Assembly (NCBI GenBank): GCA_963755915.1
Contig: CAVWLP010000003.1
Span: forward strand, 1,184,001 to 1,248,000
DNA from: an uncultured Phycisphaerales bacterium
GTDB taxonomy: Bacteria > Planctomycetota > Phycisphaerae > Tepidisphaerales > Tepidisphaeraceae
Reading direction: 5' to 3'
DNA length: 64,000 bases
Positions 1-4,475 of the stretch are shown piece by piece. Each line of letters begins with the position of its first letter. Position 1 is the stretch's first letter. The position numbers and the translations under genes were made by a program. The notes under the pieces were generated by a model. The model worked only from the letters and a program-made list of their open reading frames with translations. It had not been told where the DNA came from and made no database searches.

Positions 1-205
1 TTGCGGGGGAATCGAAGGCGATGCACGCGCCGCTGTTGTGCGATGTATAGGGGATTCGATCGTCGACCAGGAACTGATGTCGCGTGATGCCGAGCAGCTT
101 CGCGCCTCGCTGCTCGATTTCCTGGGCGAGGCGGCGGGCCAACTGTCCGGTGCCGGGACTGGTGTCGTTGTCGGTGTCGTCGATGCCGATGAGATAAGTG
201 GTCAT
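1..205 (-). CDS. TiaS-like (tRNA(Ile2) agmatinylcytidine synthetase N-terminal-like) protein, 3' truncated by window edge
   Basis: Not in the ORF track. Manual translation from ATG 205: MTTYLIGIDDTDNDTSPGTGQLARRLAQEIEQRGAKLLGITRHQFLVDDRIPYTSHNSGACIAF. IGIDDTD and IPYTSHN resemble the TiaS catalytic motifs. Starts 14 bp after the stop of the upstream gene. Confidence 0.7.
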   Translation of the reverse strand, partial: MTTYLIGIDDTDNDTSPGTGQLARRLAQEIEQRGAKLLGITRHQFLVDDRIPYTSHNSGACIAFDSPA

Positions 206-218
206 ATACGTCCGGCGG

Positions 219-2828
219 TCAGTGAAACTGTTGGCGCGGGCTTTCGCCGACAAAACCGACGCTGCCGTCGAGCATCAGGTAGTTGACGCCCTTTTTATAT
301 CCGGGATGAGATGTGGGCAACGCGCTGACCCAGATATCGCTCATGACCCAGGTTTTGGGGTCCATGCGGAGGTTGAGTTTTCTGGGCCACGAGACGCCGC
401 CGCGAAGGAATTTGCTGAGGCTTGGATCGGAGCCGGCGCTCGAAGCGCCGTAATAGTAATAGCCGATGATGCCGGAGCGAAAATTCTGATCGCTATATTC
501 GAGAGCGGGATCGCGCTGGCTTGGGCAGTAATAGGTTTGGGGGTCGCCGGTGACGTGCCCGGCGGTAAGGGCGTCGAGAAGCTCGACATGGGGATTTTCC
601 ACGGTGGGAGAAACCGGCAAGTCGCCTCCGCTGGCGTGGGCGTAGAGAATCAGCTCGGTGCCGAGCTTACGCAGGTTGTCCTTGCAGAGAGCGAGGTTGG
701 CTGCTTCGCGAGCGCGCTCTATCGAGGGGATGAGCATGGCGGTCGCCAGCGCGACGATTGCAATCAAAGCTAAGAGATGAATGTAGGAAAACCCTGGCCG
801 AGACGCCGATTTTCGATCTGGACGCCTTCGCTTGAGAAAAAGCGACGATGAGCAAAGTCCAAGCAGTGCTGCGCTGACAGGTTCCGGCACATCGGCCGTC
901 AGGCCGTTGGCGTTGGCGAAGGCGTCGAGGGCCGCCCAATCGCCGGGGATTACATCGGCATCGGCGTCGTTGTCGCCCTGACCGAAGTTTTCGGCGAGGG
1001 CGCTGAAATCGGAGCCGTTGACGGAGGAGGTGAAGAGGAAATTGCCCTGGTCCCAGTTGGTGACGCCGAGGCCAAAGTTGGCGGCAAGGATGCTGAAGTC
1101 AGAGCCGTTGACGGCGCCGTCGAGATTGGCGTCGCCGAGAAGCGTATATTTCAGCTCGATCTGGCCGGAGGATAATCCGGCGACGATGCTGTCCTTGCCA
1201 TCGGCGTAGCCTAAACCGTAGGCGTGATTGGCAGCGGCGGAGGAGATGATCCCCGTGCCGTTCCAGGCGCCGCCGTTATAGCCCGATTTGAGCAGCGCGG
1301 CGATTGAAGCGATGGGATCGGAGCCGCTGCCGTAATTGATATAAATGTGATTGTTGTTGATGTCGAGCGTGCCGCTGCCGGTGATAGCCAGGGAGTCAAC
1401 CTGGGCGAGGCCGGTTCCGGCTCCAAGTTTGAGCGTGCCACCGGAGATAGAGACGTTGCTATCGGTGGGAAGAGCGCCGTTGGCTGCTACGATGAGCGTG
1501 CCGGCGGTGACATCGGTGCCGCCGGAATAGGTATCAGCTCCGGCCAATTCGGTGACGCCGCTGCCGGCGATCGTCAGGCTAAATCCCGCGCCATCGTCGC
1601 CGACACTCGATTGAATGGTCAGGGGATTCGAAGAGTTATTGGTCCACGTTTGGCTCGCGCCCAGCAGAACGCCCGGCGTGCCGGCGATGGTGTCGCCGGT
1701 TACGTTGATCGTGTGGGCTCCCGATCCGGATTGAACGGTGATACCGCCGGAAAGAAGGGTCAGGGTATTCGCGCCGCCGACGATGACCGAATTGGTGCGG
1801 GCGGAAGTGAAGGTCAGGCTGTTGATGCTGAAGTCGGCGCCGAGCGTGGTGCTGAGAGTTCCCGCGCTGTTGCCGGTCGAGCCGAAGATGACATTGGTGA
1901 CCCTCCCGCCGGGAATTGCATGAAGGTCGGCGCCGCCGTCGGTGGCGCTCCAATTGGTGCCGGGGCTGGAGGAGGAACCGAGTTCGGTGGACCAGACCAG
2001 TCCGGCCGCGCCGGACTGAGCGCCGGACCAGTAAGCGGTCGCCGGTGGTGCGGCGGTGTAGGTGACGGTTAATTCCGGCGCGAGGGCGGGATCGTCATTT
2101 GCAGCCGCGCCTTGGGCCGACCAGAAAGCGCGGAAGGTTCTGATGTCCGTCTCATCGGCGTTCTTGATAACCCAGCCGAAATTGTTGGACGGATCATTCA
2201 GCCAGTTTTGCACATCCGTCACCATCGCGGCCGACGACCAGGTGAAACTCGCCAAGGTTCCGGTGACGCTGGCGTCGGCAATATCGGTTAATGATGAGGA
2301 CCAGTCTCCGCCGGCGATCGTCCAGGGCGTCGTGCTGTAGAAGGCGTAGTTCCAGGTGGCATCGCCCGGATCGGGCGCCGCGCCGTGCCCGGTGCCGCCG
2401 AAGGTGGTTGCGCCGGGGAAGTTGGTCGGCTGGCCCCACGCCTGCGATTCATCGAAAAGGCTGATGGTTTCCGGGCCGCTGGTTCCGCCGGAGCCACCCC
2501 CCCCGCTGCCGGCAACCTGGCCGACGGTCATTTGAAGGGTTACCCCGGTAATGGTTGCGCCGGACGGGATCGATCCGGCGATGTTGAATTCGATCAGGCC
2601 TCGTTTGGGATTGCCCTCGCCGTCGGTGCCGACAAAGATGCCCGGATCGGCGAGGCTGTTGTTGGTGGTCGCGTCCGAGCCGCCGAGGAGGGTGGCGTCT
2701 TGGGCGGCGCCGAGTTCAATCTGATCCCCTCGAGCCGATGGGGCGCGCAGCGAGAATGCGGCTATTTCCACAAGGCCAAGCGCGGCGGCGGTCACTGCGG
2801 ATTTTCCTGACCTGATACGCATTTGCAT
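219..2828 (-). CDS. Secreted DNRLRE-like domain + autotransporter-associated beta-strand repeat + dockerin-like + internal PEP-CTERM, fused to a C-terminal prepilin-like/H-X9-DG (DUF1559-like) domain
   Basis: Signal peptide; [73 protein letters not shown]; then PG|FSYIHLLALIAIVA..AREAA..C..NLRKLG..YYCPS..HPGYKKGVNYLMLDGSV. Confidence 0.85.
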   Translation of the reverse strand: MQMRIRSGKSAVTAAALGLVEIAAFSLRAPSARGDQIELGAAQDATLLGGSDATTNNSLADPGIFVGTDGEGNPKRGLIEFNIAGSIPSGATITGVTLQMTVGQVAGSGGGGSGGTSGPETISLFDESQAWGQPTNFPGATTFGGTGHGAAPDPGDATWNYAFYSTTPWTIAGGDWSSSLTDIADASVTGTLASFTWSSAAMVTDVQNWLNDPSNNFGWVIKNADETDIRTFRAFWSAQGAAANDDPALAPELTVTYTAAPPATAYWSGAQSGAAGLVWSTELGSSSSPGTNWSATDGGADLHAIPGGRVTNVIFGSTGNSAGTLSTTLGADFSINSLTFTSARTNSVIVGGANTLTLLSGGITVQSGSGAHTINVTGDTIAGTPGVLLGASQTWTNNSSNPLTIQSSVGDDGAGFSLTIAGSGVTELAGADTYSGGTDVTAGTLIVAANGALPTDSNVSISGGTLKLGAGTGLAQVDSLAITGSGTLDINNNHIYINYGSGSDPIASIAALLKSGYNGGAWNGTGIISSAAANHAYGLGYADGKDSIVAGLSSGQIELKYTLLGDANLDGAVNGSDFSILAANFGLGVTNWDQGNFLFTSSVNGSDFSALAENFGQGDNDADADVIPGDWAALDAFANANGLTADVPEPVSAALLGLCSSSLFLKRRRPDRKSASRPGFSYIHLLALIAIVALATAMLIPSIERAREAANLALCKDNLRKLGTELILYAHASGGDLPVSPTVENPHVELLDALTAGHVTGDPQTYYCPSQRDPALEYSDQNFRSGIIGYYYYGASSAGSDPSLSKFLRGGVSWPRKLNLRMDPKTWVMSDIWVSALPTSHPGYKKGVNYLMLDGSVGFVGESPRQQFH

Positions 2829-2831
2829 GCG

Positions 2832-3680
2832 TCAGTTTGCCATTCGTCGCTGCCGGCGGCAAAGCAAAATCGGAGCAACCGCGCCGAGCAGCGAAAGACT
2901 GACCGGCTCCGGGACGGTATAGGTGATGGCCAGGTCCGGCTCAAATCCGTTATTGGCGTTTGTCGCTCCCTGCGTTCCCCAGAATCCTAAAAAGCTCTGG
3001 GCACTCGACGAATCGGCATTGAGGATAGCCAACCCATTGTTGGAAGATGGCGTGTTAACCCATCCCTGCACTTCCGCAATCAGCGCCGACGACGACCACT
3101 GAACTTCCGCACTGTCTGTTCCCTCGATGCCCGAGGTGGTCGCGAGCGCGACTGAGGTTCCGGTTATGTTGGCGGGCATTCCGCTGCTCCAGGCCGTCGC
3201 GAGAGAGGGCATTGAGTTGTAAGCAGCGTCGTTCCAGGTGGCGTCGCCCGGATCAGCCCCAAAGCCCTGCCCATGGCCGCCGAATGTGGTGGAACCCACT
3301 TCGTTGGTCGAAGCGCCCCACGCCTGAGATTCATCATAAAGACTGATTGTTCGCGTAGGCCCGGAATCCACGACATTGCTCCCACCGCTTCCGGCGACCA
3401 TGCCGATGTAGAGATCGAGCGTTGCCCCCGTGATGGTGGCGTACGATGGAATTGACGAGATATTGAAGGCCATCAAACCGATTTTGAATGAAGTATTTGA
3501 ATCGGTGCCCACAAAAATTCCCGGATCGCCCAGACTATTCGTCAGGTCGCCTTGAAAAAGCGTGTCGTCGCCCGTCGAAGGGGCGTTGTCGAGAATATCC
3601 GCCCGCGCCGATGAGACGCAGATCGCGGAGACATTGACGCAAACAGCGACAAATAAAATTTTCGTCAGGTTCATTCTCAT
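2832..3680 (-). CDS. DNRLRE-like domain PEP-CTERM protein
   Basis: Signal peptide; paralogous to the N-terminus of 219..2828 (DPGIFVGTD, TISLYDESQAWG); C-terminal VPEPVSLSLLGAVAPILLCRRQRR. Start chosen from AGGAG RBS at 3688-3692. Confidence 0.85.
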   Translation of the reverse strand: MRMNLTKILFVAVCVNVSAICVSSARADILDNAPSTGDDTLFQGDLTNSLGDPGIFVGTDSNTSFKIGLMAFNISSIPSYATITGATLDLYIGMVAGSGGSNVVDSGPTRTISLYDESQAWGASTNEVGSTTFGGHGQGFGADPGDATWNDAAYNSMPSLATAWSSGMPANITGTSVALATTSGIEGTDSAEVQWSSSALIAEVQGWVNTPSSNNGLAILNADSSSAQSFLGFWGTQGATNANNGFEPDLAITYTVPEPVSLSLLGAVAPILLCRRQRRMAN

Positions 3681-3725
3681 GTGCATTCTCCTTTTCCTTA
3701 AAAGCTCCAATTGGAGGGTTGGTGT

Positions 3726-4475
3726 TTACTGAGCGCTGTTCCAGGTACTTCCTGGCGGCAGCCAGCGAACGTCGGCATGCTCGATGACGCCCGTGCCGCA
3801 ACCGATATAGGCGGCGGGAATCGCGGCGACATGTCCGTCGAGAAAACAGATGTTTACGGAATTGTTGTTGTGGCGCGGGACGGGGTTGTATCCGCCGGCC
3901 GTTTTTGACGGATAGACCGAACAGTAATTCCCAGGCCCATCCGCGAACAGCACCATGGTGGCGGTGCTGCCTACGGCGGTGATCTTGTTGGGTTGCCCGT
4001 TGTTCTGATTTGCTTCCCAGACGGAAAGCGCCATGTTCATCCCGAACGACCAGTAGTATGTGCCGGGCATGTCCACGGCCTGAGGGCAGATCCAGACGGA
4101 ACGATCCGGCGGACGCGGAATTGCGTTTGTCGACGCCAGCGTTTTCACCGTTGGGTCGGCGTCTCCATACTCCGGCAGCTTCATCAGCGGAGGCAGCGCG
4201 TTAAACCAATCCGTCGGCCGATTGATGATGCCGGTCGGACCAACCCCCTGGCCGCGGCGGGGAAGAAACCCATTGTTTTCGTTGGCGTACAGCGCCGTTG
4301 CGATGGCCCACTGGCGGAAATTCGACTGGCACGTGATCCCCCCCACGCTTCGCCGGGCCAGTGTCAGCGTCGGCAGCAGCAGACCCATGAGGATCGCCAC
4401 GATGCCGATTACCACCAGCAACTCGACGAGCGTAAAACCCGCGGAGCGATTGTTGTTACCGTGGATAGGATCCAT
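3726..4475 (-). CDS. DUF1559-like prepilin-type N-terminal cleavage/methylation protein with H-X9-DG motif
   Basis: [51 protein letters not shown]. Confidence 0.9.
   Translation of the reverse strand: MDPIHGNNNRSAGFTLVELLVVIGIVAILMGLLLPTLTLARRSVGGITCQSNFRQWAIATALYANENNGFLPRRGQGVGPTGIINRPTDWFNALPPLMKLPEYGDADPTVKTLASTNAIPRPPDRSVWICPQAVDMPGTYYWSFGMNMALSVWEANQNNGQPNKITAVGSTATMVLFADGPGNYCSVYPSKTAGGYNPVPRHNNNSVNICFLDGHVAAIPAAYIGCGTGVIEHADVRWLPPGSTWNSAQ

Follow-up and report, generated by a model that had tools for sequence, protein, structure and literature searches.

In the genome of an uncultured Phycisphaerales bacterium we have found a protein with an internal PEP-CTERM sorting signal that continues, in the same reading frame, into a pilin-like protein. 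The gene lies in a stretch of 64,000 nt from contig CAVWLP010000003.1 (assembly GCA_963755915.1, positions 1,184,001 to 1,248,000; referred to here as the window), where positions 219-2828 of the minus strand form one uninterrupted open reading frame (ORF) of 869 aa (P0001) with no stop codon between its PEP-CTERM and pilin-like parts. The fusion in the window is real and in frame and is not an assembly error. Alignment with related loci indicates that it arose recently, when a deletion joined two neighbouring genes of a conserved cassette, and the distribution of fused forms among homologues shows that the fusion is not a one-off, at least two to three independent events being required. The parts of the fused gene are the following.

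219-2828, minus strand: fused ORF P0001, 869 aa, with its stop codon at 221-219 (ORF and translation).
2730-2828, minus strand: predicted Sec signal peptide, about residues 1-33, suggested by a hydropathy peak at residues 17-20.
2061-2699, minus strand: DNRLRE domain, residues 44-256 (NF033679, 41.5 bits, cut-off 34).
1488-1580, minus strand: PATR, or autotransporter-associated beta-strand, repeat, residues 417-447 (TIGR02601, 22.6 bits, cut-off 19.85).
975-1139, minus strand: two dockerin-like Asp/Asn repeats, read from the sequence.
819-890, minus strand: PEP-CTERM module, residues 647-670, made up of VPEP, a hydrophobic helix and KRRR (TIGR02595, 15.8 bits, cut-off 16; hydropathy).
792-833, minus strand: basic linker K666-G679, net charge +6, predicted to be cytoplasmic and holding the fusion junction (hydropathy, charge and junction alignment).
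633-791, minus strand: pilin-like N-terminal helix from F680 (FSYIH), a membrane helix followed by the alpha-1 stalk (AlphaFold 2 (AF2) model and hydropathy).
222-632, minus strand: globular pilin-fold domain with two invariant Cys residues (AF2 model, VIA-align and invariant columns).
264-308, minus strand: H841-X12-D854-G855 motif, the C-terminal signature of DUF1559 (PF07596, 24.8 bits; TIGR04294, 16.4 bits, cut-off 19; invariant columns).

The junction was checked against Logan contigs (not raw reads) of four soil-metagenome runs from one study, aligned to window positions 200-3000. A 309-nt contig of run X2 (record 10, depth 5), which comes from another of the study's samples, covers 606-914, spanning VPEP, the linker and the G|F site, with no differences and no gaps; a contig of run X1 (record 1) covers 200-818 with one substitution, and no insertion or deletion is listed over the covered parts of the window in any of the four runs. 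An artefact of assembly or sequencing that joined two genes might be suspected, as the source assembly consists of three contigs with 8% contamination and an apparent frameshift occurs elsewhere in the genome (overlapping ORFs L057:810-1673 and 1565-3403 versus an 854-aa frame in genome G001). However, the short-read contig is identical over 606-914 with no indels listed, the change at the junction is a substitution plus a 28-nt deletion, unlike a homopolymer slip, and fused orthologues occur in three other assemblies. We therefore reject assembly error, on the strength of the identical X2 contig and the independent fused homologues, and consider it extremely improbable. Confusion between paralogues within the genome was also considered and rejected: the last 200 residues of the ORF (P0002, used throughout as the query for the C-terminal part) have no second full-length match there, the other 52 matches spanning only the N-terminal 60-110 residues.

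The N-terminal part of the fused ORF is that of a PEP-CTERM protein predicted to be secreted. Its N-terminus is homologous to N-termini in loci L013 and L027, and the database copy of the protein (P0104) begins at a later start. For the PATR repeat, PF12951 gave 25 bits against a cut-off of 27; for the dockerin-like repeats PF00404 gave only 12 bits, and the orthologues from L027 and L031, as well as P0107, score above its cut-off. As a separate observation, positions 1046-1139, within the dockerin-like repeats, have a contig depth of 10.7-58 in the four runs, compared with about 2-8 in most other covered bins, and are rich in variant letters; this repeat is common to dozens of paralogues here and in G001. 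The Pro-Glu-Pro motif is present, VPEP being residues 647-650 (nt 890-879), and is followed by a hydrophobic segment centred on residue 658 and by the basic cluster KRRR (residues 666-669). The module is not C-terminal, as 199 residues follow residue 670. The reading frame passes from KRRR via PDRKSASRPG into FSYIHLLALIAIV, with Gly at position -1 and Phe at +1 of a prepilin-type site, G679/F680 (nt 792/791), which is thus situated at residues 679/680 of 869 and not near the N-terminus; a second hydrophobic segment (residues 685-697) is stronger than that of the PEP-CTERM module, and after it comes a domain of 165 aa with the H841-X12-D854-G855 motif at its end.

No frame contains an ATG within nt 890-792. 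GTG occurs in frame once, as the codon for the Val of VPEP (890-888), neither TTG is in frame, and a single in-frame CTG lies at 866. An earlier interpretation made from the letters alone (the sequence-only reading) had held that the fusion is in frame without a stop and that no ATG in any frame, and no in-frame GTG or TTG, separates VPEP from G|F, and on both counts our data agree with it. It might still be supposed that the pilin-like protein is also made alone from an internal start, given that the Val647 GTG and the CTG at 866 are both in frame and that a second fusion of the same genome, described below, has an in-frame ATG just ahead of its basic loop. Against this, a GTG or CTG start would yield a leader that includes the greater part of a transmembrane helix, neither ATG nor GTG nor TTG offers a start between VPEP and G|F, the fused relatives of the second family have no conserved Met at that place and the upstream ORF reads through in any case, and we regard a nested gene of this kind as very improbable.

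The C-terminal part is a bitopic pilin-fold protein of about 200 aa that belongs to a subfamily of the DUF1559/H-X9-DG-like proteins, here termed His5. PF07596 (DUF1559) matched P0002 with 24.8 bits against a cut-off of 23.3, over profile positions 245-264 only (18.3 bits with the whole ORF), whereas TIGR04294 (H-X9-DG) gave 16.4 and 12.8 bits against a cut-off of 19. The sequence-only reading had described the motif as H-X9-DG; the actual spacing is H-X12-DG (H841..D854-G855). The corresponding residues of P0002 (H172, D185 and G186) are invariant across the family, and every family-invariant residue is kept in the window copy. The hidden Markov models (HMMs) for prepilins, PF07963 and TIGR02532, had no match at E <= 1 on either P0001 or P0002. 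Substitution of His for the canonical Glu5, which had also been pointed out earlier, is true of the window copy (His684), and among 78 N-termini of the family position +5 is His in 51, Gln in 19 and Glu in 5.

An AF2 model of residues 640-869, based on 101 aligned sequences, has a predicted local distance difference test (pLDDT) score of 89.8; in it, model residues 43-93 form a helix of 50 residues that lies against a small sheet, with pLDDT >94. A Foldseek search of the PDB returned nothing at E <= 0.001, the best match being the pilin PilA4 at E 0.15. VIA-align, run against 48,161 chains, also ranked PilA4 first (6xxd_A, Z 5.8, 121/125 residues aligned), and further matches included ComP and the type IVb pilin of enterotoxigenic Escherichia coli (both Z 5.0), EpsG (Z 4.9), PilE and PilV (both Z 4.8) and PulG (Z 4.3); pilins or pseudopilins occupied 21 of the 22 top rows, at modest Z values. 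As modelled, the C-terminal domain has a pilin-like fold, and no closer relationship is claimed.

A search with P0002 found about 91 close stand-alone orthologues (P0003-P0093, E <= 3e-40, 40-82% identity), nearly all of 164-237 aa, those with complete N-termini having leaders of their own (3-28 aa). Scans of genomes and metagenomes gave 39 loci, of which 26 were examined, three of these running off the contig. Upstream DNA was usable in 24 loci, and 18 of these have, 0-75 nt ahead of the match, the end of an ORF that closes with PEP, a helix and a basic cluster; the 24 are not all independent (L014/L030, L016/L035, L024/L026 and L036/L037 are duplicates). The upstream ORF has the variant VPQP in L016 and L035, and no PEP-CTERM ORF end was present upstream in L017, L018, L028 and L040, the first two being distant relatives with the canonical Glu5. 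The usual state is two tightly abutting genes in a conserved cassette; the sequence-only reading had assumed that, apart from the fusion, the two families merely co-occur, and in this it needs correction.

The order of the cassette, A-B/C-D-E-F, is conserved as judged by local tblastn of window positions 1-4475 (minus strand) and loci L013-L041. Gene A codes for a prepilin-type H-X9-DG protein of the canonical kind. B/C stands for one or two PEP-CTERM proteins with DNRLRE, short (~290 aa) and/or long, the long form having PATR and dockerin-like parts. D is the His5 pilin-like protein, E an IGIDDTDN protein of ~250 aa with a weak TiaS-TCKD match (16.7 bits), and F a DUF3147-like membrane protein. 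The order D-E-F is kept in the distant loci L017, L018, L019 and L040 and also where the PEP-CTERM gene is absent. In the window, A occupies 3726-4475, B 2832-3710 and the fused C and D 219-2828, and the start of E lies at 205-1; the neighbours of the fused gene are listed here.

2832-3710, minus strand: cassette gene B, a short DNRLRE PEP-CTERM protein of 292 aa with an ordinary C-terminal PEP-CTERM (ORF, HMM and tblastn).
3726-4475, minus strand: cassette gene A, a canonical prepilin-type H-X9-DG protein, G|FTLVE (PF07963, 32.8 bits; tblastn).
1-205, minus strand: start of cassette gene E, which leaves the window, an IGIDDTDN protein that is weakly TiaS-TCKD-like (ORF, HMM and tblastn).

Across the genome as a whole, a strict pattern count gave 168 PEP-CTERM ORF ends, and 6 of about 89 pilin-like genes lie within 200 nt after a PEP-CTERM motif, a seventh match being false (a signal peptide). 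General adjacency of the two kinds of gene is weakly enriched at best, and the link is therefore confined to certain families.

The origin of the fusion was approached by aligning the window junction with three split loci (L024, L013 and L022), which are relatives and not the ancestor. All three read GAT TGA, 4 nt and ATG, where the window has GAT CGA at the matching place and is without about 28 nt that carry the spacer, the ATG and the first leader codons. The downstream gene of the split loci is one base out of frame with the upstream gene, and a 28-nt deletion puts both frames in register; the end of the leader, SASRPG, is still recognisable in P0003, the closest split orthologue. The stop would have been lost by a change of TGA to CGA, and a deletion of ~28 nt would have taken the spacer of 4 nt together with the ATG and the larger part of the leader and aligned the frames, a course of events that we infer from these relatives.

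When longer proteins were searched with P0002, three more fused forms appeared beside P0104. These are P0105 (87% identity, junction LFLRRRRRRG|FSYVH), P0106 (77% identity, junction CRRRRRSA|FTIVH) and P0107 (58% identity, 814 aa with PATR and dockerin domains, junction RRRRRGRRSTG|FTLVQ), the last of which scores 18.7 with TIGR02595. The junctions of these three and of the window all differ, and VPEP is kept in all four. In a tree built from the mature domain only (88 rows, with 7 fragments of <170 residues left out) the fused label has to change three times, and branches with good support demand at least two of these changes: the sister of P0106 is P0016, which is split, and P0107 groups, with support, with P0050, P0053 and P0060, all of them split. 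A representative library clustered at 50% gave 24 matches at E <= 1e-30, mostly of 190-240 aa, with no PEP-CTERM ahead of the pilin-like part in the 13 inspected that have N-terminal extensions. The search for independent fusions that the sequence-only reading had proposed was thus productive, yielding these three proteins and the paralogous family described next. That reading had also named the case that would speak against it, namely orthologues that are always split and a fusion that is a one-off deletion; the deletion does appear recent and most orthologues are split, but the fusion recurs.

The paralogous family came to light in a pattern scan of the whole genome for PEP, a helix and basic residues followed in frame by a pilin-like start, which found one further ORF. 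This second fusion, P0257 (612 aa), lies outside the window on contig C2 of the same genome at ~2587064-2588902 of the plus strand (L057:1565-3403); its site, G|FTLVE, is canonical, and it ends in a true H-X9-DG motif. Its pilin-like part was searched among proteins of 336-1071 aa, and the 120 best listed matches were classified. An internal prepilin site lies behind PEP, a helix and a basic loop in 24 of them (Ala at -1 in 16, Gly in 8) and behind a helix and a basic loop with no PEP in 48 (Gly in 47, Ala in 1), several of the latter being named Hydrogenedentes by NCBI; 26 have an upstream extension without a helix, probably reflecting miscalled starts, 21 are ordinary N-terminal prepilins and one has no site. 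At the internal sites behind a helix among these 120, residue +5 is Glu in 72/72 and residue -1 is Gly or Ala in 72/72, a degree of conservation that would make little sense if the site were no longer recognised or a free N-terminus not required. All 19 of the listed matches with at least 49% identity to P0257 (P0258-P0276) are fused likewise, with PEP kept in each. Many of the 48 PEP-less proteins (among P0278-P0328) show a [DE][YF]VPVPL-like motif before the helix, possibly another sorting signal of the C-terminal type; no CTERM-domain match from NCBIfam was obtained in the seven that were scanned (P0280, P0284, P0286, P0289, P0306, P0314 and P0324).

At the DNA level the second fusion is present in the source genome (G000), in G001 and G011 of the same genus and in G014, the G014-based observations (L012, L061) being duplicated by the public records L015 and P0268. 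In L062 (G026:C218) the same PEP-CTERM/prepilin pair stands in one frame and is parted by a single TGA, which makes this locus an intermediate on the way from split to fused or back. G027 has a stand-alone pilin-like gene, again as seen in the DNA, and in ten further genomes (G019, G031, G032, G050, G059, G041, G023, G040, G046 and G043) the matches start close to the prepilin site, lie in open frames of 280-338 aa and would be stand-alone genes, as judged from the match table alone. The upstream part of the second fused gene consists of the overlapping ORFs L057:810-1673 and 1565-3403, compared with an 854-aa open frame in G001, and this apparent frameshift may be an assembly indel or a real break. 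Support for the second fusion of the source genome comes from its homologues. A different kind of internal prepilin site may be held by P0168, a protein of 388 aa with two prepilin-type N-terminal helices in tandem (at about residues 55 and 140).

How such a protein would sit in the membrane can be predicted with some coherence. The fused ORF has three hydrophobic segments and the loop K666-G679 with its net charge of +6, and this fits the out-in-out topology put forward in the sequence-only reading: the passenger would lie outside, helix 1 would lead to the +6 loop inside, and helix 2 would lead to the pilin-fold domain outside. Prepilin-type proteins insert with their basic leader inside and their globular part outside. 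For PEP-CTERM proteins, Haft 2006 (PMC1569441) assigns PEP to the interface of periplasm and membrane, and the basic cluster to the cytoplasm. As the PEP-CTERM tail and the prepilin leader are both cytoplasmic, joining them would alter neither topology, and this retention of both native topologies would explain how the fusion can arise repeatedly and become fixed. The genome encodes three exosortase homologues (PF09721 matches above cut-off) and a prepilin peptidase (Peptidase_A24, PF01478, 75.5 bits). We hypothesize that the fused protein is produced and enters the membrane as a hairpin, that exosortase would cut at PEP on the outer face, freeing the passenger as in the split state, and that the pilin-fold domain would remain in the inner membrane, anchored by the hairpin; a prepilin peptidase cut at G679|F680 would be possible for the window copy and is probably not required in the His5 family. 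This is the outcome that we favour, though guardedly, for the window protein.

A number of observations weigh against this reading. Support for the junction itself is one depth-5 contig from the same study, and the runs listed include no RNA run. TIGR02595 scores 15.8 bits on residues 647-670, just below its cut-off of 16, albeit over the full profile (1-24/24). In the AF2 model the PEP-CTERM helix has a pLDDT of ~55, and neither of two models shows confident packing of a hairpin. None of the 26 loci examined has the fused form, an in-frame stop lying shortly upstream in 23/23 that could be judged. The fused members, 4 of ~95 sequences, are all at the tips of the tree, so that the fused state in the His5 family may be short-lived or mildly harmful, not useful. 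The fusion could also be regarded as a tolerated or mildly harmful accident, with the passenger trapped or exosortase blocked by a non-terminal PEP-CTERM and the gene decaying or re-splitting. The rarity of fused forms and their place at the tips would suit such an accident, as would a deletion that looks recent and the treatment of long-tailed PEP-CTERM regions, in Haft 2006 (PMC1569441), as rare and possibly non-functional. However, neither half shows a disabling change, the fusion arose at least two to three times, and the same architecture is fixed, and conserved to ~37% identity, in the paralogous family. We judge an accident to be decidedly unlikely, and retain hairpin insertion with release of the passenger at PEP as the preferred reading.

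The sequence-only reading went further than this and proposed a doubly processed polyprotein, in which exosortase cuts at PEP outside, prepilin peptidase cuts at G679|F680 inside and the PEP-CTERM tail serves as the leader. The predicted products would be a surface protein that has been sorted, a pilin-like subunit, free and N-methylated, in a 1:1 ratio to it, and a short transmembrane peptide as the remainder. The elements are in place, in that G|F is kept in the window copy, VPEP in all four fused orthologues and both enzymes are encoded, and in the paralogous family the internal site is strictly canonical in 72 of the 120 best listed matches and PEP is kept in 19/19 close fused relatives of P0257. 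In the His5 family, however, the site is degenerate: residue -1 of the 78 N-termini is Gly in 45, Ala in 17, Arg in 14, Ser in 1 and Lys in 1 (that is, not Gly in 33/78), position +5 varies as given above, one whole clade has R|WRLVH, and PF07963 and TIGR02532 are without a match at E <= 1. PilD-type cleavage almost always requires Gly at -1, as assembly does Glu5. Furthermore, a search of the open-access literature found no report of a prepilin peptidase acting behind a transmembrane leader. With so degenerate a site and the failure of both HMMs, many His5 members would therefore hardly be substrates, their helix looking like a plain signal-anchor, and cleavage by prepilin peptidase in this family is doubtful. 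For the window protein we consider the doubly processed polyprotein unlikely.

In a more general form, back-to-back sorting signals would make a membrane polyprotein, with a sorting helix of the C-terminal type (PEP-CTERM or another anchor made of a helix and basic residues) followed directly by an internal prepilin signal, cut outside by exosortase and inside by prepilin peptidase; this we put forward tentatively, thinking it somewhat improbable. If true, such a polyprotein would yield two differently routed extracytoplasmic proteins, and a whole secreted protein would act as a prepilin leader; the window gene would be a fresh example and the paralogous family (72 of the 120 best listed matches) the established form.

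PEP-CTERM signals, prepilin signals and DUF1559 are each already known, and the recurrent fused architecture is so far undescribed: in open-access literature we found nothing that links PEP-CTERM with DUF1559 or H-X9-DG or describes an internal prepilin site behind a sorting helix, and 'H-X9-DG' itself occurred there only in an unrelated context. PEP-CTERM/exosortase sorting and the hundreds of planctomycete DUF1559/H-X9-DG proteins are abundant and experimentally largely unexplained. The abutting genes, the pair separated by one stop codon and the true fusions constitute evidence, of the Rosetta-stone type, for joint action at the cytoplasmic membrane, and the fusions show that a PEP-CTERM tail shares its side of this membrane with a prepilin leader. 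They also offer a natural substrate for asking if exosortase depends on a free C-terminus and if an internal site can be used by prepilin peptidase. For annotation, it follows that long fused ORFs of this kind are not to be split or dismissed and that an internal PEP-CTERM is not automatically non-functional.

Among known systems, the fused ORF resembles in its first part the substrates of PEP-CTERM/exosortase (EpsH) sorting (TIGR02595, PF07589; Haft 2006, PMC1569441), with which it shares the VPEP motif, a helix of ~15 residues, the basic cluster and the presence of exosortase genes in the genome, as well as a predicted signal peptide and a Ser/Thr/Asn/Gly-rich passenger. In Haft 2006 (PMC1569441), 87% of PEP-CTERM domains have <10 extra C-terminal residues, whereas the 199-residue tail of the fused ORF is a complete, conserved second protein.

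In its second part the ORF resembles the prepilin-type H-X9-DG/DUF1559 proteins of Planctomycetota and Verrucomicrobiota, having a G|F site, a long hydrophobic helix, a pilin-like fold and the His...Asp-Gly signature, and its orthologues are named prepilin-type H-X9-DG proteins by JGI. It differs from them in His or Gln at +5, a variable residue at -1, the X12 spacing and the lack of an N_methyl HMM match, and in that the window domain is short (~200 aa) and internal, not N-terminal. GspK-type minor pseudopilins likewise have a pilin fold without Glu5, and the Glu5-less pilin fold of the window adjoins a canonical, Glu5-containing pseudopilin-like gene (3726-4475); however, no sequence or HMM relation to GspK was found, and no secretion ATPase or platform genes were seen in the cassette.

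A further parallel is a family of proteins of 760-1026 aa (P0258-P0276, for example) that consist of a passenger, a helix, a basic loop, a canonical prepilin N-terminus and DUF1559; P0257 is a member in the same genome and one protein, P0268, is named 'PEP-CTERM sorting domain-containing protein' by NCBI. As in the window, a sorting helix stands back-to-back with a prepilin-type helix. Unlike the window protein, this family contains another DUF1559 paralogue with a canonical A/G|FTLVE site, and close relatives share the fusion as a fixed trait, whereas the window gene belongs to a family that is normally split.

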